The position numbers and the translations under genes are program-made. The notes beneath the pieces are model-generated. The model was given only the letters and a program-made list of their open reading frames with translations, had not been told where the DNA came from and made no database searches. A DNA stretch of 64,000 nucleotides from Escherichia phage AV111, in sequence record OR352941.1; one strand, 5' to 3'. Positions 1-13,359 of the stretch are shown piece after piece (position 1 is the stretch's first letter; the number at the start of each line of letters is the position of its first letter).

Positions 1-723
1 TACCTCTAGCTTTAGATTTTCTGAATTTATCCTTAAATTCTTTGGTTGCATTTCTTTTCGAAGCTGCGATAGAGGCCTTTGCTCTATTTTCAGGTTTAGA
101 CCAATACAATGTTTTAGATATTTTATTTTATCTTTAACATTAGGAGAATTCATTATATCTTTAAATTTTAAAGCAAAATCTCTATCGCTAAACATTTTTT
201 TAGAACGAATAGAAACTTTCTCTCTTCGTTCTTTGGTCCAATATGTTTTTTGAAATTCTCTAATTGCGTTTAAATGATTCTCCGACAATTTGCAATTTTT
301 TCTAACACCGACGTAATCTTCATTTATTTCGTTTTTAGAAAGTTTTACTATTTTGCCTGTTTTTAAATTTTTATACGGTGCATATCCTTTAGCTGATATT
401 CTAGACTTCTCGTTAGCATAAGCCTTATTAAAATATTTTTCATTTGAAACGGCTTTAACATTGAGTTGGAATAGTCTTTCTATTCTTCTAGGGTCTAATG
501 TGGTTTCGCCTAAAATTTTTACAGAATATTCGCCTTGGTCTATTAATCTGTTATATAAAGGAGAATACGAGGAATTAACACTACCGGTATATATTTTACC
601 GGTAGAATCTTCAATAATATCCTTTCCATTAAAATGACACGAAACTTTAGAACCTATATAATAACACGGGTATTCATTTTTAATCTCACGATTATAAAAG
701 GTTATAAGATATATTAAATTCAT
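1..723 (-). CDS. GIY-YIG (Seg-like) homing endonuclease, C-terminus cut by window edge
   Basis: Hand translation from ATG at 723: MNLIYLITFYNREIKNEYPCYYIGSKVSCHFNGKDIIEDSTGKIYTGSVNSSYSPLYNRLIDQGEYSVKILGETTLDPRRI...; frame stays open to position 1; YYIGS and YFNKAYAN motifs shared with ORF 11839-12660. Confidence 0.5.
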   Translation of the reverse strand, partial: MNLIYLITFYNREIKNEYPCYYIGSKVSCHFNGKDIIEDSTGKIYTGSVNSSYSPLYNRLIDQGEYSVKILGETTLDPRRIERLFQLNVKAVSNEKYFNKAYANEKSRISAKGYAPYKNLKTGKIVKLSKNEINEDYVGVRKNCKLSENHLNAIREFQKTYWTKERREKVSIRSKKMFSDRDFALKFKDIMNSPNVKDKIKYLKHCIGLNLKIEQRPLSQLRKEMQPKNLRINSENLKLEV

Positions 724-728
724 AATTA

Positions 729-1145
729 TCAAGCAGCAACCATCTGCTTTTTAATAGCTTCAGGCAGTGATTCAATATATTCTGGAATTTTAGAAGCAAC
801 AATTTCGCCAGCTGCAATTAGTTGTTCGTCGGCATCAACACAGTAAAAATCTTCAAGGCGTTCAGAACCGTCTTTATCAAGAACGATTTTAGCACCTGCT
901 TCGATAGAATCTTTATAGTGCTTACGCATCAAATGAATCCACATATCAGACACATCGTTATCAATAAAACCATAAATCATAAAACGAGTTTCTTGTGGCA
1001 AAGATTGGAGTTTTTTAGCACTTGCGTCATCACAATGCAGGACCCATGCTTTACGAACACGATTATGGTTATGCGGGTTAGCGTCAGTACGGATAGAAGT
1101 AACTTTCAGATCAGCAGCGGTAAAACCTTTAGCAGTAGTAAACAT
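729..1145 (-). CDS. hypothetical protein in the position of T4 rpbA
   Basis: 138 aa ORF between a 45.2-like ORF and the HEG; size and position fit T4 rpbA, sequence identity not verified. Confidence 0.4.
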   Translation of the reverse strand: MFTTAKGFTAADLKVTSIRTDANPHNHNRVRKAWVLHCDDASAKKLQSLPQETRFMIYGFIDNDVSDMWIHLMRKHYKDSIEAGAKIVLDKDGSERLEDFYCVDADEQLIAAGEIVASKIPEYIESLPEAIKKQMVAA

Positions 1146-1400: not shown

Positions 1401-3089
1401 TTATGAAACAGTCATTACAGTAAATCGTCCAACTTTGCTCATTTGCAAATGTTGTCCATAACGTTGAGGGTCATGGTCCCTATGAGAAATAATGAACACG
1501 TTAGTATTTTGTAAACTTCCAAGAATGGTATCTATAGCCTTAACAGCTTCAGAATCAACTGCCCCATCAAAAACCTCATCAAGAATCAGAGTGTTGATTT
1601 TAACACCAGAGACCTTTTCAGCAATATCTCGCCATGTAAACAACAACGCGATATCAATGCGTGCTTTTTCACCTTGACTAAATGAAGCATAACTAAAATC
1701 TTCACGACCACGTGATTTTATAGATTCATTGAATTCTTCATCAATAGAAAACACGTAATCAGCTTCCATAATTTTAAGATAATGGTTAATCTGCTTGTTG
1801 AACAGAGGCACATATTTTTTAATGATAGCACCTTTAATACCAGAATCTTTTAACATATCTGTGATAATACCACGATGGTATTTTTCAAGAACGATATCCG
1901 ATTTTGTTTTAATGATTTTATCAAGTTCTTTTTGAAGCAAAGCTATCTCATCGGCATGGTCGATAAATTCTGCTGAGGCTTGCTCTATTGCAGCTTTAAC
2001 TTTCTTAGCTTTATCAATAGTGGCAATCATTGCTTGTTTCTTGGTACGAATATCGGATGCAAGGTCCTGCTTAGTCTTAACATTAGCTCTATATTCGTCC
2101 ACTAGGACACTCAGATTATCTCTGTGACAGGTAAGTTGCTCGAATGAGTGATTACATTCATGAAGCTTATCGGTAATCTTAGAGACAATAGGGTCACCCT
2201 GGTGCAATTGTGATGCACAAGTAGGACATGTGCCACCGTCATGATACATCTTAATAACTTTGTTATATGAGTCGATTTTAGATTTAATCAAGAATGCTTC
2301 TTGTCCTATCTTGTTGAATGCCTCAGTAGGGTCTTCATCAAGAACGATATTAAGTAGTCGCTCATTAGCTTCTTCGATTTCTGCTTTTAATGAACGAGCT
2401 TCTTTGGCTAGGTCGTCATACATATTCTGTAGACGCGCTACATTATCACCAGATAATTTCTTTTGACGTTCGATATTCTCGTTATAAATCTTAATTTGTT
2501 GGATAACACCATCTTTCTTGGCATCAAGAACTTGTCCCTGAGAATTAAGTTCGCGAACTTGAGACTTATTGATTTTATCCATTTCAGCGAGTGTGCCGAC
2601 TTCTAAAAGGTCTTCGACAAGTTTTCTACGAGCAGGGGTGCTAAGAGCCATGAAAGGGGTATACCCTGCCGTCCCAAGCACAACGATCTGTTTAAAAGAC
2701 GCGTATGACATTCCGATGCTACGTTCAAATTCTTCTTGGAAGTCACGACTGCTGGCAGATTCATCAAGACGAACACCGTCAACGGAGATTTCGAAAATAT
2801 TGGGCTTTTGGCCTCGTTTAATGAAGTATTTTTTATCATCGAATTCCATCCAAAGCTCAACTAAGAGCTCTTTCTTGTTCGTGCTATTAATGATTTGTCC
2901 TTTCTTAACATCACGAAATGGTTTACCGAAAAGTCCGAAAGTAATGGCTTCTAACATCGTAGATTTACCACCGCCATTTTTACCGGTGATTAAGGTCTTT
3001 TGGACTTTATCTAATTGGATATCGATAGGATTCCCACCTACCGACATGATGTTTTGATAACGAACACGATTTAATTTAAATGATTTCAT
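1401..3089 (-). CDS. 46: gp46 recombination endonuclease subunit (Rad50/SbcC-like ATPase)
   Basis: 562 aa; Walker A GKNGGGKST near N-terminus, long coiled-coil middle, C-terminal ATPase half; T4 gp46 is about 560 aa; ATG at 3087-3089. Confidence 0.9.
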   Translation of the reverse strand: MKSFKLNRVRYQNIMSVGGNPIDIQLDKVQKTLITGKNGGGKSTMLEAITFGLFGKPFRDVKKGQIINSTNKKELLVELWMEFDDKKYFIKRGQKPNIFEISVDGVRLDESASSRDFQEEFERSIGMSYASFKQIVVLGTAGYTPFMALSTPARRKLVEDLLEVGTLAEMDKINKSQVRELNSQGQVLDAKKDGVIQQIKIYNENIERQKKLSGDNVARLQNMYDDLAKEARSLKAEIEEANERLLNIVLDEDPTEAFNKIGQEAFLIKSKIDSYNKVIKMYHDGGTCPTCASQLHQGDPIVSKITDKLHECNHSFEQLTCHRDNLSVLVDEYRANVKTKQDLASDIRTKKQAMIATIDKAKKVKAAIEQASAEFIDHADEIALLQKELDKIIKTKSDIVLEKYHRGIITDMLKDSGIKGAIIKKYVPLFNKQINHYLKIMEADYVFSIDEEFNESIKSRGREDFSYASFSQGEKARIDIALLFTWRDIAEKVSGVKINTLILDEVFDGAVDSEAVKAIDTILGSLQNTNVFIISHRDHDPQRYGQHLQMSKVGRFTVMTVS

Positions 3090-3340
3090 ATGTATTCTCT
3101 TCGAATGAAGTCCTCTACATATTTTAACATGTCATCTCTATCAGCAAAATATTCATCTAGTTCTGCATACATAACAACACCTGGTGCATACTCACAGGTA
3201 ACATACATTGTTCCAAAGAAACGAGGAGTTGATTCCTCGTAATTCTCAGTCCATTCAACGATACCAATATAACCGTCACCAATACTAAATTCATGACGAT
3301 GGATTTCATAATCAGTCTTCGTCATTATACGCATCCTCAA
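3086..3340 (-). CDS. hypothetical protein (46.1-like position)
   Basis: 84 aa ORF between genes 47 and 46, start overlaps neighbour. Confidence 0.45.
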   Translation of the reverse strand: MRMRIMTKTDYEIHRHEFSIGDGYIGIVEWTENYEESTPRFFGTMYVTCEYAPGVVMYAELDEYFADRDDMLKYVEDFIRREYI

Positions 3341-3569: not shown

Positions 3570-4585
3570 TGTGTTGCCTCAATATAAAGTTCGTTGGAAT
3601 ATTTGACCAGCGCTTCTCTGTCTTCGTCTGAGATATCTGGAATCGCGTCAATATATTCTTTAATGATATCTTGAAGTGATTTAATCTCGATTTCCTGGTC
3701 GTCATCAGATTCAACACTGTTATCAACTTTAGAAACCATGCGAAGAGAGTGAACTACTTTTTCAAGTTCAGATTCAAACTTAGTCAACTCTGAATCAATT
3801 TCTGATACTATAACACGTAAGGCTAGATTAGTATAATCAGAATAATTGATTTTGCCTTTAAACGGATAAGTGATTCGTCGATGCCATGTTGTTTCATTAG
3901 GAATAAATTCCATACGTTCAACATCAGTGTCAAATACCCAGAATCCGCGCGGGTCATTCTCATCACCTGCAGTAAGGGTCCATGGTGTCCCAATATATTT
4001 GACGTTAGCAGCTTCAGAGATTGTGTGGAAGTGGCCGGACCAGACTTGTTTATAGGTCTTTAAGAAATCAGGTTCAAGCCCATGAGACTTCATTCCTTTA
4101 TAGAAATAAAAGCCGTTAAGTTCCCAGTGACCAACACAATACGCAGCAGAAGAAGTCTTGATGTGCTCTAAGATTTCACCTGTATTTTCTTCACACATCC
4201 ATGGAACGATATCAATCAGACATCCGTCAAAATCTACAGTAGTCGGATGCTCGTAAATAGTAAAGTTTTCAAATTGAGTTAACAATTCAGAAACAGTGTT
4301 AGGTGTTATTGTATTCTTAAACGCCATGTCATGGTTTCCTATCGTGACATGAACGTGAATGCCTGCTTTAGAAATCATATCAACGATTTCACGATTGAAT
4401 TCCATTGTACGATGTGTTATTGCTTTACGGACGTCAAACCAATCACCGTACTGAATCCAAGTTTTAATCCCGTGTTTCTTAGAGTATTCAATTGCTTGTT
4501 GAATACCATCACGTTGAATATCTTGAACCCATGGGTCGTCTTGTTTGACTCCGATATGGAAGTCGCCTAAGTGCAAAATTTTCAT
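3566..4585 (-). CDS. 47: gp47 recombination endonuclease subunit (Mre11/SbcD-like phosphoesterase)
   Basis: 339 aa, same length as T4 gp47; N-terminal MKILHLGDFHIG calcineurin-like motif; SD GAGGAAA upstream of ATG 4585. Confidence 0.9.
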   Translation of the reverse strand: MKILHLGDFHIGVKQDDPWVQDIQRDGIQQAIEYSKKHGIKTWIQYGDWFDVRKAITHRTMEFNREIVDMISKAGIHVHVTIGNHDMAFKNTITPNTVSELLTQFENFTIYEHPTTVDFDGCLIDIVPWMCEENTGEILEHIKTSSAAYCVGHWELNGFYFYKGMKSHGLEPDFLKTYKQVWSGHFHTISEAANVKYIGTPWTLTAGDENDPRGFWVFDTDVERMEFIPNETTWHRRITYPFKGKINYSDYTNLALRVIVSEIDSELTKFESELEKVVHSLRMVSKVDNSVESDDDQEIEIKSLQDIIKEYIDAIPDISDEDREALVKYSNELYIEATQ

Positions 4586-4608
4586 ATTATTTCCTCATTA
4601 GTTAATTC

Positions 4609-4633
4609 ATTCTATCATCCGTTTATAAAGCAA
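4609..4633 (-). promoter_or_regulatory. middle (MotA-type) promoter candidate for gene 47
   Basis: Minus-strand TTGCTTTA (MotA-box-like, 4626-4633) 11 nt upstream of TAGAAT (4609-4614), then SD and gp47 ATG. Confidence 0.45.
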
Positions 4634-4656
4634 AAAAGGAACTCCGAAGAGTTCCT
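4631..4656 (-). terminator. intrinsic terminator
   Basis: Minus AGGAACUC-UUCG-GAGUUCCU followed by UUUUUU; immediately upstream of the gene 47 promoter. Confidence 0.55.
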
Positions 4657-4867
4657 ATCCACATAGTACACCGTACAGAGGCTCATTTGAACTTTTAAAT
4701 CGAATGGGCTTGTACGTAATAGTTCCTTCGGCTTTAGCTTTATCATAAGACTCTTTAAAACGTCTCATTCTTTCTGCTTTGCCTTTACGGATTTTATCGA
4801 AATTTTCAGAAGTCGGGATGTTCGTCATGCATAAGCACCTCTCAGAAAATGCCTAAATCGATTTCTC

Positions 4868-5667: not shown

Positions 5668-6130
5668 AATGCGTCATTTTATCGTAGATGTCTTGAATAA
5701 ATGTTTCATCTACCAACGCTACCATATCATCGTCATGACTGTCGTAGACATTATGAACGAAGTAACTATATTTCTTTGCAACTTCCTTACGTTCTTTTTT
5801 GATACGTTGGACAAAAGCATTAAAACAAGCTCGAGTTATGTATGCATGTGGGTTATTGTACTTAGTTTCGTCGAAATTATGAAGTCCCTTAATAGAGGCT
5901 TCAATCCCATCTGCAATCATCTCCTGCTTCCAAGACTGGGTATATCCTGAAAAGTTGAAACGTTTGGACAGGCCTTCGGCGATAAGCATAATTGCTAAAC
6001 CGATGGTATCATTCTGACGAATAATTTTGTTTGGGTCTTTATTATTTAAGAGCTCCTTTTTCCACTCGATTATAGCGGCGAGAAGCTCTTTATTATTCAC
6101 ATAGTTATTTTTAGGTTTTTGTTCAGTCAT
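5573..6130 (-). CDS. 55: gp55 late-transcription sigma factor
   Basis: Track ORF starts at TTG 6148; ATG at 6130 with SD AAGAGGT gives 185 aa as in T4; [13 protein letters not shown]...[15 protein letters not shown] matches recalled T4 gp55. Confidence 0.9.
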
Positions 6131-6202
6131 AAGTACCTCTTGGCTCAATTCATAGGTCTATTATATCATAATATTTAGAGACCTATCTTAAAGCACGAGA
6201 TA

Positions 6203-6472
6203 CTATCGGAGCAAACAATAAGCCTGAAACACTTTTTCCATTAAACGTTTGAACTCATGGATATCGATATAAAGCTCAGTAAGACCGGCATTATAAAGAA
6301 AATCTAAAAAGTTCTCATGTGTTTCGTTATAGACGCCTTCGTTTAATTGAGATACATGAGTTTCCCAAAAACCAACACCTTTAACGAATGGAAAATACGT
6401 GACTTTCATGTATTCGTCAACATAAAATTCGCCCAGCTTTTCTTCAGTTATACTGATTCGAGTTAATTTCAT
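6203..6472 (-). CDS. hypothetical protein
   Basis: 89 aa ORF. Confidence 0.45.
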   Translation of the reverse strand: MKLTRISITEEKLGEFYVDEYMKVTYFPFVKGVGFWETHVSQLNEGVYNETHENFLDFLYNAGLTELYIDIHEFKRLMEKVFQAYCLLR

Positions 6473-6696
6473 TCTAGTTCCTTTGCTGCTTCAAGAGCAA
6501 CATCCAGCGAATCAAATTGGTCAACGAAATCAATATTCAACGCATCGTCAACCGTAGCATATAACCACCATTGTTTGAATTCGTATTCTAGAATAAATCC
6601 AGGACCTTCAATCTGAGGAAGACCTAGACTATTTGTACCAACTTCGTAACCAGCTAGACGCAGGTCATTAATCAAAGTTTCTGTTAATACGCTCAT
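6469..6696 (-). CDS. hypothetical acidic protein
   Basis: 75 aa ORF, translationally coupled to neighbours. Confidence 0.45.
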   Translation of the reverse strand: MSVLTETLINDLRLAGYEVGTNSLGLPQIEGPGFILEYEFKQWWLYATVDDALNIDFVDQFDSLDVALEAAKELE

Positions 6697-7025
6697 TTTA
6701 CCGCCTTAACAATTTTAAGGTCAACGAATTTTTTCTTACGTTGATTTTTCATACGACGGATAGTCTTTTCAGAGATTTCATGTTTCTGATAAGCTTTAGA
6801 TTCAACACCAAATGCAGCAACGTCAAATTCAGAAAGAATATATTGTACTAGAATTTCACGAATAGAATTACGTCCAATTTTCTGGTCGTGTTTTTGCATG
6901 ATTTCATAAAGACGGAATTCCCACGCATCAAGAACTTGAGGAGTAACAATATTGCCAGATTCCAGAAGAGCAACAACTTTATCGAAAGCGAAAGAATTAA
7001 CTACGTTTTTGATTTTAGTAGACAT
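6693..7025 (-). CDS. hypothetical protein
   Basis: ATG at 7023-7025 with SD GAGGAAA; track start 7073 is upstream of the promoter -10. Confidence 0.5.
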   Translation of the reverse strand: MSTKIKNVVNSFAFDKVVALLESGNIVTPQVLDAWEFRLYEIMQKHDQKIGRNSIREILVQYILSEFDVAAFGVESKAYQKHEISEKTIRRMKNQRKKKFVDLKIVKAVK

Positions 7026-7062
7026 ATTATTTTCCTCGGTTATTTTATTATCCAACGAGAGA

Positions 7063-7091
7063 ATTATACTCATCTCTCAAGAGTTTGTATA
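7063..7091 (-). promoter_or_regulatory. early promoter
   Basis: Minus TATACA-N17-TATAAT; -10 flanked by GAGAGA/TCTCTC inverted repeat. Confidence 0.45.
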
Positions 7092-7331
7092 CTATTTTTT
7101 AAGCATGAAAAGTAAGTAATTTGTATCACGTGGAGTAATATCAACACCCATATCAAAGATGCCTTTATAGATTGGGTATTTGTTTTCGGTTGTATCGAAG
7201 CTGAAACTATTTCCATCACAACTAACAGTAATAGCATCTGTTAAAATGTCATACTCAATCCTAACAATTGAATCCCCAATTTTAACGTCGAGGTGTTTTT
7301 TGAATTTGATAAAATCTAATTCTTGGGCCAT
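7092..7331 (-). CDS. hypothetical protein
   Basis: 79 aa ORF. Confidence 0.45.
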   Translation of the reverse strand: MAQELDFIKFKKHLDVKIGDSIVRIEYDILTDAITVSCDGNSFSFDTTENKYPIYKGIFDMGVDITPRDTNYLLFMLKK

Positions 7332-7394
7332 GATATTTTCCTCATTTTAAGACGATAGGAAGATAATAACATGTCTTCCTATCATTGTACATTA

Positions 7395-7595
7395 TTAACC
7401 GAACTTTTTAGCGCCTTTCCAGCCTTCGTACATAACTGCACAAGTCAGTAGTACAGCTTGCTGGCATTCTTTGTATTTGTAAATCCAGAACCAGCGTAAG
7501 AAGTCTTCATCCTCAACGCCGTTGAGTTTCATATTGGCAAAGAATTCGGCACGTTCTTCACGAAGCTTTTGCGATAACATAGATTCAGGATTCAT
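7395..7595 (-). CDS. hypothetical protein
   Basis: 66 aa ORF. Confidence 0.4.
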   Translation of the reverse strand: MNPESMLSQKLREERAEFFANMKLNGVEDEDFLRWFWIYKYKECQQAVLLTCAVMYEGWKGAKKFG

Positions 7596-7733
7596 TTTGT
7601 GTTCCAGGCCCCATTTTCATCGATGAACTTAATCCAGTCATTTACAGACCATTTAGTTGTATCACCCTTTGGATTAACATTTAAAGTATATAATCCCTGC
7701 TTAAAAAGCATTCGTTTGATATTCATAATTTCC

Positions 7734-8027
7734 TCAACTGTAACGATAACATTCGTTAGCTTTACGTTTGGCTTCAGTATGAGAAGTATTATAATCATAC
7801 TCTTCTTTACTGTAAACATCTTTTTTCAACTTATGAACTTCTTTGCGGAGTTGTCGATTCATTTCATTCTTGACTTCAGAATCAACGCCTTTCATACGTT
7901 TCCATTTATCTGAGCGGAAAATGTTTTCAACCATGTCTTTGTGGCTAACACCGTCAGGAGCTTTACGCTTACCAAAATAGTCATAATCGCGAACTTTCAA
8001 ATCTTTACGACGATACGTTTTACCCAT
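7734..8027 (-). CDS. hypothetical basic protein
   Basis: Internal Met (MGKTYRRKDL) chosen to avoid overlap with 8035-8283. Confidence 0.4.
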   Translation of the reverse strand: MGKTYRRKDLKVRDYDYFGKRKAPDGVSHKDMVENIFRSDKWKRMKGVDSEVKNEMNRQLRKEVHKLKKDVYSKEEYDYNTSHTEAKRKANECYRYS

Positions 8028-8034
8028 AAGTACC

Positions 8035-8283
8035 TCAGAGGTTGATTGATACAACGCGTTTGATAAAATTCACTTCACTTACTGAAAGGTCTTTAAGACC
8101 GATTGATTCTAAACGCTGAGTAAGCGTCAACATCGGGATATAATCCCAATGAGTTTTAGTTGCTTGATAAGTACGAACTCCATTAGCAATTTCAACGTTC
8201 AAATCGGAAATGGTAATGAATATCGGACGTTCGTTATTTACATTAAGAGATAGAACAACTTTCTTTGAATCTAAACTAATCAT
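8035..8283 (-). CDS. hypothetical protein
   Basis: 82 aa ORF. Confidence 0.45.
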   Translation of the reverse strand: MISLDSKKVVLSLNVNNERPIFITISDLNVEIANGVRTYQATKTHWDYIPMLTLTQRLESIGLKDLSVSEVNFIKRVVSINL

Positions 8284-8462
8284 GGCTTAATTTCCTTCGC
8301 AATTGAACAGAAGATACCACGGTCACAAAGCATTTCACCAATTTCTGGATATTTGATTGAACGGTACCAAACATCCAGGCTTGAAACTCTGGTTATCTGT
8401 ACGGCATTACCATTGACAGAATAGTACTGGTCAACCTTAATTTCTTTATCTTCAATTGTCAT
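8280..8462 (-). CDS. hypothetical small protein
   Basis: Track N-terminus looks out of frame; MTIEDKEIKV start at 8462. Confidence 0.35.
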   Translation of the reverse strand: MTIEDKEIKVDQYYSVNGNAVQITRVSSLDVWYRSIKYPEIGEMLCDRGIFCSIAKEIKP

Positions 8463-8611
8463 TTTATTTTCCTCTATAGCAGATGGTTTAATCTTAACAC
8501 ATCTATTGAGGATGTAAACTGTTTTATGAAAATATTTTTTGATTTGAGAGGGGCACAAGGAGATAGTGAAGTGAAGATTCCAATGGATTATATTAGAAAT
8601 GAGATAAAGAA

Positions 8612-8630
8612 GACCAGGCGGCACCTGGTC
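8612..8630 (-). terminator. stem-loop, possible terminator
   Basis: GACCAGG-CGGCA-CCUGGUC hairpin at end of ORF 8629-8952, partly U-rich tail. Confidence 0.3.
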
Positions 8631-8952
8631 AATCTTCTATGATATCAGAGTCATATCCTAATGAAATCAAGGACTTTTTAAACTCTGCAATATTCTTTTG
8701 TTTCTTATCATTTAAAAATATGACAGGATAACGAATATTAAGTGAAGTGAATCCTGCACGTTTAGCAAGAGATACGATTAAAGGACGGTCATATTCAATC
8801 TTACCATTATTAGTGAGGACTTTATAAAATGTATAAGGAGCATTGAGCTCCTTTAAAAGTTTTGTAACAGTATAACATCCTGGACAACGTCCAACTTCTT
8901 CAGGGATGCCATAAATTTCAATCTTGTTCTTTAAGTTCGAGTTTTGTTCCAC
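8629..8952 (-). CDS. thioredoxin-fold CxxC protein (NrdH/glutaredoxin-like), GTG start
   Basis: KIEIYGIPEEVGRCPGCYT redoxin motif; no ATG in frame near the domain; GTG at 8950-8952 with AAGGAA 9 nt upstream. Confidence 0.5.
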   Translation of the reverse strand: MEQNSNLKNKIEIYGIPEEVGRCPGCYTVTKLLKELNAPYTFYKVLTNNGKIEYDRPLIVSLAKRAGFTSLNIRYPVIFLNDKKQKNIAEFKKSLISLGYDSDIIED

Positions 8953-9235
8953 GAGAAATAATTCCTTGGTAAGCCCAATAAGGAGGATTAACAGAATCCT
9001 CACCAGAGTTTTCTTCAGGAAAATAAACCTGGATAACGAAGCCGGATTCATCAAAGGTAAAATAAACCGTAGGCAGTTCACCTAACAAATCGGCACGAGC
9101 GTTGATTTCTTCGAGGTCTTGTTCACGTCCAGCCCAGAAGCTTGGGTTCAGACTACATTCATAGAAATAATAGTCATTACCGAACATATCAAAACCATTC
9201 CAACTCTCTACTACATACCGCTCAAAACTAATCAT
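8918..9235 (-). CDS. hypothetical acidic protein
   Basis: 105 aa ORF; overlaps the nrdH-like gene in another frame. Confidence 0.45.
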   Translation of the reverse strand: MISFERYVVESWNGFDMFGNDYYFYECSLNPSFWAGREQDLEEINARADLLGELPTVYFTFDESGFVIQVYFPEENSGEDSVNPPYWAYQGIISRGTKLELKEQD

Positions 9236-9237
9236 AA

Positions 9238-9453
9238 TTAAGCCTTTTTATCAAGAACAGAATTCAGTTTATTAGTAATTTTGTCCAAACGTTCATTGAA
9301 TTCGCTGGAGGATAAACCCTTTTCTGGAGAAATTAAACTAATCACGAAAAATACACCAGTAAAAGGAATAAGAAAAATAGCTCCAACTGCCATAAACAAA
9401 AAGAACGTTACAGTTGTAAGAAAATCAGCTAAACCTTTACGAAATTTGTACAT
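9238..9453 (-). CDS. small membrane protein
   Basis: 71 aa with one long hydrophobic segment. Confidence 0.45.
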   Translation of the reverse strand: MYKFRKGLADFLTTVTFFLFMAVGAIFLIPFTGVFFVISLISPEKGLSSSEFNERLDKITNKLNSVLDKKA

Positions 9454-9563
9454 ATTTACCCTTAATTAACTAAGCATTGATAATCATTAAACTATATTGC
9501 GAATAAAATTCTGGACCAAAACGAAAAATCATATCATTTATAGTATCCATAATGTAATTCAAT

Positions 9564-10034
9564 TTAATCATGTTTCCACACCCCATCGGTATTTGACCAA
9601 AGTCGCTGATTATCTGATCCTCGCCACAGCTTTTTAGTCGGAAGATTTTTCTCATACTTCCCATCAATAATAACATCAACATATTTAAGCATTTCTAGTT
9701 GTTTAATATCTTCAAACTTATATCCTGTCCACAACCAAATGCTTTTATTGGGATAAAGATTTTTTACTGTTTGAACAATGCAATGAATAACATCTCGATT
9801 ATCAGGATAGAGAGGGTCTCCTCCGGTTATAGTCAATCCTTCTATATAATCGTTATTCAAACATTCAATTAATTGTTCTAGTGTTTCACCAGTGAATGGA
9901 ATACCATTTCTAGCATTCCATGTTGATTTATTATAGCACCCTTCACATTTATGCAAACAACCTGTAACGAAAAGAACGACCCTGCATCCAGGGCCATTCA
10001 CAAAATCGCAAGGATAAAATCTATCATAATTCAT
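9564..10034 (-). CDS. nrdG: anaerobic ribonucleotide reductase activating protein (radical SAM)
   Basis: 156 aa; CLHKCEGCYN radical-SAM cysteine motif; ATGA overlap with nrdD stop. Confidence 0.9.
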   Translation of the reverse strand: MNYDRFYPCDFVNGPGCRVVLFVTGCLHKCEGCYNKSTWNARNGIPFTGETLEQLIECLNNDYIEGLTITGGDPLYPDNRDVIHCIVQTVKNLYPNKSIWLWTGYKFEDIKQLEMLKYVDVIIDGKYEKNLPTKKLWRGSDNQRLWSNTDGVWKHD

Positions 10035-11848
10035 TGGTGTTTAACCCTATGCATGATTTCTTTATTTTTGCCGAGATTAAATCCGCGTTCGTTCGGGTTT
10101 CCCAAATAACCGCATGTTCTTCTTATGGTGTTCATCTTTTTAGGATCAGTTTCTCCGCAAACTGAACAAACAAATCCGTTTTCAGTAGGAGTCATTTCAT
10201 GGGTACTTCCACATGTAAAACATTTATCTACTGGCATATTAACACCAAAATAATCTAAATGTTGTGCAGCATAATCCCACACGGCCTCAAGTCCTTTTAA
10301 GTTATTTTTCATATCAGGAAGTTCAACATAAGAAATGTGACCACCTGTCGCAATGAAATGATATGGCGCTTCACGAGAAATCTTTTCAAACGGAGTAATA
10401 TTTTCTTCTACTGAAACGTGGAAACTGTTAGTGTACCAGCCTTTATCGGTAACATCTTTTACACTTCCATATTTTTCTGTATCGAGTTTACAGAAGCGAT
10501 AACAAAGGTTTTCAGCAGGAGTAGAATACAAACTAAAAGCAAAACCAGTTCTTTCAGTCCACTGCTTAAGATGAGCATTCATTTTAGTTAAAATTTCTTG
10601 CCCAATATCACGGCCGACAAGAATATTCAATTCGTGAATACCAATGTATCCTAAAGACACTGAACTTCTACCGTTTTTAAATAACTCAATTATGTCGTCA
10701 TCAGGTTTAAGACGAACCCCGAATGCACCTTCTTGGTAAAGAATAGGAGCTACAGTTGCTTTAACTCCTTTTAAGGAACTAATTCTACACATCAAAGCTT
10801 CAAAACACAGGTCCATTCGTTCGTTAAATAGCTCAACAAATTTCTGTTCATTGAACTGTGTTCCAATATAAGAATCTAACGCAATACGAGGAAGATTCAG
10901 TGTTACAACACCAAGATTATTACGTCCATCAAGAATTTCATTACCAGTCGAATCTTTCCATACGCTCAAGAAACTACGGCAACCCATTGGAGAAACTGGA
11001 ACTGAAGAACCGGTAATAGCTTTATTATTCTTAACCGAAATAATGTCAGGATACATTCTTTTGCTTGCACATTCTAACGCAAGTTGTTTAATATCATAGT
11101 TTGGATCATCTTTATAAAGATTAACACCTTCTTCAACAAACATAACAAGTTTAGGAAAAATAGGAGTTATTCCATCACGACCAAGACCTTTAATGCGGTT
11201 TTTAAGAATTGCCTTCTGAATCATTCGTTCAGTCCAATCGGTTCCCGTACCAAATGTAATTGTTACAAAAGGAGTTTGTCCGTTTGAACTAAAGAGAGTG
11301 TTTACTTCATATTCATAAGCTTGGAATGCATCGTATACGTCTTTTTCTGTTTTAGATTGAGCATAATTCAACGCGTCAGCGATTTGCCATTTTTCTGCAT
11401 CTTCAACATGTTTAGCGTATGTACGTTTAACATAAGGAGAAAGAACTTTATCGACATTCGCAAAAGTCGTTCCGCCGTATTGGTGTGAAGCAACTTGTGC
11501 AGTAATTTGTGCCATAATTGCAGTAGCAACACCAATCGATTTAGGCGTTTCAATTTGAGCATTGCCTAATTTAAATCCGTTCTCAAGCATCCCTTTTAAA
11601 TCTACTAAACAACAATTAGTAAAAGGCAATGATATACTGTAATCTAAATCATGAAAATGAATTAACCCGGCATTATGAGCATTTACAATATGGCTTGGAA
11701 GAATACTGCAAGCGATATGTTTAGAAACAATACCGGCCATTAAATCTCTTTTTGTTGGAAAGACACGAGAATCTTTGTTGGCGTTTTCGGTATTTAATTC
11801 TTTATCTTTATTTGAAATAAAATTTAAAACATCTTTCTCTAAAGACAT
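10031..11848 (-). CDS. nrdD: anaerobic ribonucleoside-triphosphate reductase
   Basis: 605 aa as in T4 NrdD; C-terminal zinc ribbon and glycyl-radical region RRTCGYLG; no interruption. Confidence 0.9.
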   Translation of the reverse strand: MSLEKDVLNFISNKDKELNTENANKDSRVFPTKRDLMAGIVSKHIACSILPSHIVNAHNAGLIHFHDLDYSISLPFTNCCLVDLKGMLENGFKLGNAQIETPKSIGVATAIMAQITAQVASHQYGGTTFANVDKVLSPYVKRTYAKHVEDAEKWQIADALNYAQSKTEKDVYDAFQAYEYEVNTLFSSNGQTPFVTITFGTGTDWTERMIQKAILKNRIKGLGRDGITPIFPKLVMFVEEGVNLYKDDPNYDIKQLALECASKRMYPDIISVKNNKAITGSSVPVSPMGCRSFLSVWKDSTGNEILDGRNNLGVVTLNLPRIALDSYIGTQFNEQKFVELFNERMDLCFEALMCRISSLKGVKATVAPILYQEGAFGVRLKPDDDIIELFKNGRSSVSLGYIGIHELNILVGRDIGQEILTKMNAHLKQWTERTGFAFSLYSTPAENLCYRFCKLDTEKYGSVKDVTDKGWYTNSFHVSVEENITPFEKISREAPYHFIATGGHISYVELPDMKNNLKGLEAVWDYAAQHLDYFGVNMPVDKCFTCGSTHEMTPTENGFVCSVCGETDPKKMNTIRRTCGYLGNPNERGFNLGKNKEIMHRVKHQ

Positions 11849-12660
11849 AATTCTAATTTATCCTTTTGAAATTCTTCGTCTAAATATGGGTTCCAACCCA
11901 TTTTAAACCTTTTGATGAAATTATCAATTCTAAATTTCGGTAAGTTTAAATCCGCAAAAATAGATGATTTACTTTTAAAATCTGGACCTAAATAATCATA
12001 TAAAATTTCTGCGTATTTTAACCATAATATATAAGTACCAGATTTAATTGCTCTCGGAGTTTTCCAAGGTTTTACACCATACATCGGATTTCCACTTCCT
12101 TTATGCCTGATAGAAGATGAAATTCCAATTTTAATTTTAGCTTCCTCTGTATGCGAAAATCCATGATGTGGATTTTCTTTCCAGTATTTTTTAGAAGCTT
12201 CTGATATTTTCTTTCTGGCTAAATTAGTATGATGCTTTCCATAAAATCCATGATTTTTACCTTTATTACGATTTCTTTTAATCATGGTTATTGATTGCTT
12301 TTTTCTAGTTTCTTTAGAAGGAGAAACACCATACGTTGTAAATTGACCATTAGCATATGCTAAATTAAAATACTCTTTATTCCATATATCTTTTTCTATA
12401 TTCTTTTGAAATTCAGCTTCAATGCTAGTTATTTGCTCATCTCCGACTAATTGAAAATATAATATTTCAACTTTCGGCGTTTCTTTCAACAGGGCTTTTT
12501 GAAATTCGGAAGATGACGAAGACGAATAATAAAATTTACCATTTTTATCAATAATATTCGTTCCGTCAAAAGTGCAATTAGTTTTACTTCCAATGTAATA
12601 ATATGGCGGGGTTTTAGCATTAATTCTATTAATAAATGATAGTTTATATACTACATTCAT
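11839..12660 (-). CDS. GIY-YIG (Seg-like) homing endonuclease with NUMOD3 repeats
   Basis: 273 aa; N-terminal VYKLSFIN...YYYIGS GIY-YIG-type motif; Lys-rich S.E.K.KIS repeats; inserted between nrdD and gene 49. Confidence 0.65.
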   Translation of the reverse strand: MNVVYKLSFINRINAKTPPYYYIGSKTNCTFDGTNIIDKNGKFYYSSSSSSEFQKALLKETPKVEILYFQLVGDEQITSIEAEFQKNIEKDIWNKEYFNLAYANGQFTTYGVSPSKETRKKQSITMIKRNRNKGKNHGFYGKHHTNLARKKISEASKKYWKENPHHGFSHTEEAKIKIGISSSIRHKGSGNPMYGVKPWKTPRAIKSGTYILWLKYAEILYDYLGPDFKSKSSIFADLNLPKFRIDNFIKRFKMGWNPYLDEEFQKDKLELCL

Positions 12661-13130
12661 TTTAAACTCTTTCTAAGCTGCTTTTTGAATGAAGCTATTA
12701 ATTGTGTTTTAGTATCAGATTCATTATATTCAAATCCTCTTTGAAGCATCTCAGCCATCATTTCCTCTTTGCCTAGTCTTGAGAACTCTTTAGTTTTGTC
12801 TGGAACAAAATTAGGATGGATATTATTATCAGAATAATCTTGTTTCAAATAAGCAAGAAGAGCTTCAAGCCATTCGAGGTAGTCAACATCACGTCCTTTA
12901 AGACCGGAACGATTGAACTTATGCTTCATTTGGCCTTCTGCTGCGTTGCACAGAGAACAGAGTAACCCACGAACTCTACCGGCTTTTGGCCCGTTTAATT
13001 CGTGGTCGTGGTCAAGATGGTTACCTTGAACATCAGGGTCTAATTCACGGTGGCAAATAGGACACTTACCATTCTGTGCATCATAAAATTTTTGTTTTTC
13101 TTCTTTGTATAATTTGCCAGATAATAACAT
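12657..13130 (-). CDS. 49: endonuclease VII (Holliday junction resolvase)
   Basis: 157 aa as in T4; CPICHREL...HLDHDH...CSLCN zinc/His motif; late promoter upstream. Confidence 0.9.
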   Translation of the reverse strand: MLLSGKLYKEEKQKFYDAQNGKCPICHRELDPDVQGNHLDHDHELNGPKAGRVRGLLCSLCNAAEGQMKHKFNRSGLKGRDVDYLEWLEALLAYLKQDYSDNNIHPNFVPDKTKEFSRLGKEEMMAEMLQRGFEYNESDTKTQLIASFKKQLRKSLK

Positions 13131-13160
13131 AATAAACCCTTACCATATATAAGATAAGGG

Positions 13161-13168
13161 TATTTATA
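13161..13168 (-). promoter_or_regulatory. late promoter (TATAAATA) for gene 49
   Basis: Exact TATAAATA on minus strand about 30 nt upstream of gp49 ATG. Confidence 0.55.
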
Positions 13169-13359
13169 ATTTAGTAAACGTTATAAAAGTCTCGATGAAA
13201 ACGTTTATACTGTCGAATCATTCTTTTAGTAGGACGTGTTACCGAAATGATTGAAGTCCTCATGTTCGGATTGTTTGGAGCCCCAATCATAATAAATTTC
13301 CAGGATTTTTGGCCGTTTGTTCTTTCGCCATAAAATAGTTCAGTTTTCATAATAAACCT

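Follow-up and report, generated by a model that had tools for sequence, protein, structure and literature searches.

Genes at the locus between gene 49 and nrdD

The 64,000-nucleotide (nt) stretch of Escherichia phage AV111 analyzed here (sequence record OR352941.1; below, the window) comes from a T4-like phage that belongs to the RB69 group (Mosigvirus). The records most similar to the window are Mosigvirus genomes, at 95-97% identity, and none is an exact match. The subject of this analysis is an open reading frame (ORF) of 273 amino acids (aa) with an ATG start, at 11839..12660 on the minus strand, which is probably a free-standing homing endonuclease gene (HEG) of the SegG family, with predicted nuclease activity. 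It is called here the first HEG, and a related ORF at 1-723 the second HEG. The order of genes on the coding (minus) strand is 49, first HEG, nrdD, nrdG. The start of the first HEG shares 4 nt with the stop of gene 49 (ATGA at 12657-12660), and its 3' end shares 10 nt with the start of nrdD (11839-11848). An initial annotation, made from the sequence without database searches, described the ORF as adjoining gene 49 and overlapping the nrdD start by 10 nt, and the ORF coordinates bear this out.

Gene 49 (12657..13130, minus strand) encodes endonuclease VII, recognized by Pfam Endonuclease_7 together with an endonuclease VII dimerisation domain, and forms the left boundary of the cassette described below. 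The predicted target gene, nrdD (10031..11848, minus strand; 605 aa), is overlapped by nrdG (9564-10034, minus strand). By the ORF list and by comparison with T4 and RB69, nrdD is uninterrupted, as had been noted: in the alignment, the positions of the T4 nrdD intron that carries I-TevII (about 11311) and of T4 mobC (about 10035) are only gaps opposite T4. The site between nrdD and nrdG, where mobC or segH is found in other phages, is empty in the AV111 window.

The initial annotation took both ORFs to be Seg-like, and protein comparisons agree. The first HEG protein matches the PHROGs family phrog_7504, "homing endonuclease" (5.7e-34), and the second HEG protein falls in the same phrog_7504. 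The N-terminal domain (N-domain) of the first shows 40% identity with T4 SegG across 128 aa (E 3e-27), and the second HEG protein is 38% identical to T4 SegG. For the C-terminal domain of the first protein (aa 190-273 approximately; 11842..12093, minus strand), which is SegG-like and presumed to bind DNA, intermediates are needed. Direct BLASTP of this C-terminus against that of T4 SegG returns nothing; it is 40% identical to the C-terminus of homolog P0004 (E 1e-16), P0004 in turn matches T4 SegG at full length with 40% identity (E 3e-45), and the C-terminus of T4 SegG matches that of homolog P0002 (E 2e-6). Confidence of the AlphaFold2 (AF2) model is low in this domain. Between it and the nuclease domain lies a linker with NUMOD3 motifs (about aa 118-185; 12106..12309, minus strand), which scores 35.2 bits against a Pfam cut-off of 20.4, in two stretches. 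The second HEG protein has no Pfam match of any kind, NUMOD3 included. Searched against sequences in the PDB, the family profile has as its sole match the I-TevI DNA-binding domain (1i3j, E 0.0015), by way of NUMOD3. A six-frame scan of the whole window with a SegG-type family profile finds two members only, the two HEGs. Both occupy troughs of G+C (0.28-0.30, against 0.35-0.39 in the flanks), which suggests, and is counted here toward, a foreign origin.

The nuclease domain occupies about aa 1-105 (12346..12660, minus strand) and is assigned from the homolog alignment as a divergent GIY-YIG domain (Y5, R12, Y22-I-G-S-K26, Y44, S47, E81, N99). Standard models miss it. Neither HEG protein matches Pfam GIY-YIG (PF01541), nor does the N-domain alone at E 10, and scans with Pfam and NCBIfam return no GIY-YIG model, only NUMOD3 and a sub-threshold TIGR01453. 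T4 SegG itself has no Pfam match at all, even at E 10, so the missing match reflects a gap in the model and is not evidence against membership; for annotation, this means that the Pfam GIY-YIG model misses SegG-type nuclease domains. The SegG-type nuclease domain appears to recur at several sites with swapped C-terminal domains. As the first HEG lies between 49 and nrdD and not between 59 and 32, it is a paralog at a new site rather than segG itself.

No promoter is obvious for the first HEG itself, which relies on the Shine-Dalgarno sequence and ATGA junction used by nrdD in T4 and RB69. Inside its own 3' end is an AAGGA (11861..11865, minus strand), a Shine-Dalgarno-like sequence by pattern, which would act for nrdD; the arrangement is the same in L011, a divergent T4-like metagenomic contig from Logan (SRR27536177). 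Upstream of gene 49, a pattern match to the T4 late-promoter consensus TATAAATA at 13168 is directly followed by a hairpin with a 9-bp stem and a T run (13136-13168, minus strand), just upstream of the gene. This combination resembles the arrangement that regulates gene 49 in T4. The 3' end of gene 49 contains, also as a pattern match, a MotA-box-like TGCTTCA with TATAAT.

Sporadic distribution and a cassette larger than the ORF

Both HEGs are sporadic and site-specific. Window positions 11500-13200 match 873 phage records, the whole stretch being found in 48, and a tblastn search with the N-domain of the first HEG (at least 95% identity) finds it in 49 records, always beside endonuclease VII. 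The second HEG occurs in 9 of 154 Mosigvirus records, and the match of HEG-less records to the window begins only at position 726. Neither gene, then, is universal at its site, the first being present in 48-49 of about 870 records, in every case between 49 and nrdD. In T4 and RB69 both sites are empty: nrdD directly overlaps gene 49 (ATGA), and 42-55 nt separate rpbA from gene 45, with no HEG in either place. This upholds the statement of the initial annotation that T4 has no seg gene at either site.

The initial annotation saw both ORFs as homing endonuclease insertions. The sporadic, site-specific distribution supports this, with two amendments. First, many GenBank records carry both genes under the label "homing endonuclease" (one labels the first "SegG homing endonuclease"), so the insertions are not peculiar to AV111; the kind of element is ordinary for T4-like phages, and both HEGs are already in public genomes. 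Second, the mobile unit exceeds the ORF. A literature search found no paper characterising a HEG at 49/nrdD or at rpbA/45, and these two uncharacterised sites, both occupied by the SegG family, can be added to the homing endonuclease sites of T-even phages.

The extent of the mobile unit emerges from an alignment of HEG-positive genomes (the window, JK42 and 348Ecol098PP from Mosigvirus, and Lutter from Tequatrovirus) with HEG-less ones (RB69, OLB35, and T4), the comparison that the initial annotation had proposed for defining the insertion points. Across gene 49, the window is 71-89% identical to Lutter and 89-99% identical to RB69. Within the first HEG, which RB69 lacks, the window and Lutter are 95-100% identical. 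The pattern persists into the first 270 nt or so of nrdD, where the window is 94-100% identical to Lutter, and only 59-72% identical to RB69 and T4, which are themselves 91-97% identical over the same segment. Genus-specific differences end at 12684 and resume at 11570. Across 11837-11627 there are 66 positions at which all HEG-positive phages agree and differ from both RB69 and T4; elsewhere in 3.9 kb, outside the cassette and the gene 49 junction, there are 3. These bounds place the left end of the cassette at about 12684-12660 and the right end at 11627-11571. Its right part is a HEG-linked variant 5' end of nrdD (11571..11848, minus strand, ending between 11627 and 11571), delimited by the HEG-specific sites and by identity. 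From identities of 94-100% across genera in the HEG and the nrdD 5' end, and from the bounded run of linked sites, it follows that a cassette of about 1.1 kb, the HEG plus nrdD from nt 1 to nt 222-278, moved between genera. A near-identical cassette in two genera whose flanking genes are 10-30% different indicates that this horizontal spread is recent.

The flank of 222-278 nt of nrdD is co-inherited with the first HEG in two genera, and the 149-nt 5' end of the variant nrdD allele is found in 49 records only, namely the HEG-positive genomes plus OLB35. A sensitive blastn search for a donor of the variant segment (11575-11848) among 50,697 phage records identified none; the next best match was Citrobacter phage Moon, at 74%. 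The nrdD part of the cassette thus appears to come from an unsampled lineage.

The history of the gene includes maintenance, loss, and a trace of insertion. All five independent copies of the first HEG that were examined are intact at 822 nt, with ratios of nonsynonymous to synonymous polymorphism (pN/pS) of 0.04-0.24, which makes it a conserved gene and not a chance ORF; it is under purifying selection. OLB35 (MH992122.1, a Mosigvirus record flagged UNVERIFIED) has no HEG, and the start of its nrdD consists of the opening 22 nt of the HEG (MNVVYKL, codons 1-7), in register with the HEG-linked nrdD allele that follows. Positions 3128-3149 of OLB35 equal 12660-12639 of the window, joined to about 11826. 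Read from its sequence, the junction is a deletion scar that records one loss of the HEG. In L011, a homolog 58% identical to the first HEG sits in the same place (2352-3180), followed by a complete nrdD from 3165 whose start overlaps the HEG 3' end as in the window. Between gene 49 and the HEG, L011 also retains, as a remnant, 55 codons from the 5' end of an older nrdD (2188-2355), which run from the native start to a stop at the ATGA of the HEG, so that the HEG has an nrdD 5' end on either side. The succession of remnant, HEG, and full nrdD implies that, in this lineage, codon 55 or so of the resident nrdD is where a cassette made up of the HEG and a new nrdD 5' end became attached. An apparent 1-nt frameshift in the L011 HEG near 2490 is either real decay or an assembly error.

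Predicted activity, target, and spread

We consider it likely that the first HEG is a free-standing homing endonuclease gene of the SegG family that travels as a promoterless cassette, cuts the 5' part of nrdD in HEG-less genomes, and spreads by repair of the break. The gene would have taken over the nrdD ribosome-binding site and ATGA junction, to be expressed along with that gene, and nrdD would gain a new ribosome-binding site from the 3' end of the HEG. When a HEG-less relative infects the same cell, the enzyme would cut a conserved 5' part of its nrdD, within roughly the first 170-280 nt, and recombinational repair from the HEG-positive genome would copy in the HEG along with the diverged 5' end of nrdD, which presumably resists cutting. 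The second HEG, a paralog, would do likewise at the junction of rpbA and gene 45. The likely cut region is bracketed by the L011 junction at about nt 165 of nrdD and by the end of the tract at nt 222-278. A sharp-edged cassette in two genera, with a scar and a fossil, amounts to a natural experiment, and it predicts a cut in the first 170-280 nt or so of nrdD.

Among 20-22 aligned homologs, Y5, R12, P19, Y22-I-G-S-K26, Y44, S47, E81, Y97-F-N99, and A103 are invariant or nearly so. The first HEG protein has the three-stranded sheet with helices that defines the GIY-YIG fold of the I-TevI and UvrC N-domains. Both the GIY tyrosine (V-V-Y5) and the YIG tyrosine (Y22-I-G) are present, at a spacing of 17 residues rather than 10-11. 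The metal-binding residues E81 and N99 are invariant, E81 being paired with I-TevI Glu75 by hhalign and N99 with Asn90 by hmmsearch; the hhalign match to a canonical GIY-YIG alignment is local only, around Glu81, with a probability of 37%. Of the GIY-YIG catalytic residues raised as a question in the initial annotation, the tyrosine pair, E81, and N99 align and no equivalent of the arginine could be placed; Pfam GIY-YIG goes unmatched.

Several observations weigh against the proposed homing of the first HEG into nrdD, and two concern this arginine. No equivalent of I-TevI Arg27 can be aligned, the position opposite it in a collinear alignment being acidic and non-conserved, and in the AF2 model the helix that bears Arg27 is replaced by a beta-meander (residues 27-47). 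A third is that the left boundary of the cassette falls exactly at the gene 49 stop, which leaves room for a target at the junction. Fourth, the diverged nrdD 5' end could be a passenger from the historical donor rather than an immunity allele. Fifth, RNA folding around the first HEG start codon is no better than that of shuffled sequences (z -0.03), so no claim is made of translational control by a hairpin.

The lack of an alignable Arg27 equivalent and the unmatched Pfam model would accord with a relic, a first HEG that is catalytically dead or has been domesticated and, no longer homing, is either a DNA-binding protein or a neutral passenger; copies of the second HEG split in two in some other phages, and the apparent frameshift in the L011 homolog, fit such an account as well. 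A relic is nevertheless quite unlikely, since selection and recent spread both speak for function: pN/pS is 0.04-0.24, and the cassette is near-identical in two genera while its flanking genes differ by 10-30%. The first HEG protein also keeps all of the family-invariant residues, which it has in common with SegG, an experimentally active enzyme. The layout without Arg27 is found in T4 SegG too, and more weakly in I-TevII (13 bits). In the model, the I-TevI helix alpha1 (Arg27, His31; PDB 1LN0) appears replaced by a beta-meander of about 20 residues with the invariant Y44 and S47, and a short helix with the invariant R12 appears inserted between the GIY and YIG strands of the hairpin. R12 and K26, both invariant, may be candidate substitutes for Arg27.

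From these features a wider reading can be drawn, which we hold only tentatively and regard as somewhat doubtful. The GIY-YIG domain of SegG and I-TevII would be a distinct catalytic variant that has lost the Arg27 helix and uses R12 or K26 instead; the HEGs would be self-immunising cassettes that bring a replacement for the 5' end of their target; and L011 would be a fossil of such an invasion, with a leftover nrdD remnant. Loss of the Arg27 helix, if it took place, would explain why standard GIY-YIG profiles miss SegG-type domains.

The position of the left boundary raises a different issue, that of the target. An active homing endonuclease might cut at the 49/nrdD junction, or in the 3' end of gene 49, and not inside nrdD: the ATGA junction is where the cassette ends on its left side, the sequence of that junction is interrupted by the insertion, and the last 80 nt or so of gene 49 are highly conserved across genera. 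The divergence linked to the HEG, however, is all on the nrdD side, where it extends 222-278 nt inward, and in L011 the left end of the cassette is at about codon 55 of nrdD rather than at the junction. SegG, too, cuts inside the downstream gene and away from its own insertion site, as reported by Liu et al. 2003, cited in PMC10448857. We regard a junction target as unlikely.

It could also be argued from purifying selection on the first HEG that its main role is to benefit the phage, by excluding competitors or by break-induced amplification or rearrangement of nearby genes. SegB is the precedent, reported in a 2026 paper (PMC13096335) to promote amplification of anti-defence loci. No locus resembling an anti-defence system is near the site, and sporadic presence, a linked flank, and a deletion scar make up the standard life cycle of a homing endonuclease gene, which leaves this explanation very improbable beside homing into nrdD.

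Related elements and the second HEG

The closest characterized counterpart is T4 SegG (gene 32.1), an active free-standing GIY-YIG endonuclease encoded between genes 59 and 32, whose target is gene 32, just downstream (PMC2988022). The cut lies in that downstream gene, distant from the insertion site of the HEG (Liu et al. 2003, cited in PMC10448857). The two share the homologous domains and invariant residues noted above, and also an organization: a promoterless HEG that lies directly upstream of its presumed target and contains signals serving that downstream gene (PMC2988022). The first HEG differs in its site, in about 70 extra residues with two NUMOD3 motifs, and in a target that is presumably nrdD instead of gene 32.

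T4 I-TevII shares with the first HEG an association with nrdD and the absence of an arginine after the YIG motif. In a two-sequence search, the SegG-type profile matches residues 28-87 of I-TevII with 13.2 bits and E 1e-5. I-TevII differs in being intron-encoded, only weakly similar, and located at another nrdD site (the equivalent of about 11311), which is empty here. The layout of I-TevII is like the SegG type, "YIG ... Y-x-SSS ... E" with no Arg after YIG, and this subfamily is under-annotated by standard GIY-YIG profiles. T4 mobC, and segH of other T-even phages, resemble the first HEG as free-standing genes beside those for anaerobic ribonucleotide reductase. They are on the other side of nrdD, reportedly between nrdD and nrdG for segH in T-even phages, and mobC is an HNH enzyme.

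Two further arrangements occur in other genomes. Tequatrovirus vB_Eco_F26 has three endonuclease-type insertions around nrdD (6001-10498): a HEG at 49/nrdD, an interruption of nrdD that contains an ORF and lies where T4 has its intron, and a "homing endonuclease" between nrdD and nrdG. A T4-like contig in ENA ERZ13617658 encodes, at 4001-4822, a protein whose N-domain is 56% identical and whose C-terminus is different, between gene 5 (baseplate hub lysozyme) and a 5.1-like gene.

The second HEG fills 1..723 (minus strand) as the first 241 of 296 codons, with no stop, and runs off the window. Its start is 5 nt downstream of rpbA (729-1145, minus strand; Pfam Phage_RpbA, 4.8e-48). The two HEG proteins are paralogs (31% identity over 194 aa, E 6e-16), and the motifs YYIGS and YFNxAYAN are present in both. 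The ORF, the rpbA match, and this identity confirm the initial description of a paralog with these motifs beside an rpbA-like gene at the window edge. In phage AV116 the full-length gene encodes 296 aa and ends in a 4-nt overlap with the start of gene 45. The variant flank linked to the second HEG is short, consisting of the first 40 nt or so of gene 45. About 30 further records (Tequatrovirus and the VR26 group) have a gene 57-62% identical at the same rpbA/45 site. Four of the nine close copies, those of phage records G2285, JM17, FL18, and AV115, match the second HEG in two pieces, annotated as two hypothetical proteins; the split suggests that these are frameshifted, decaying copies.

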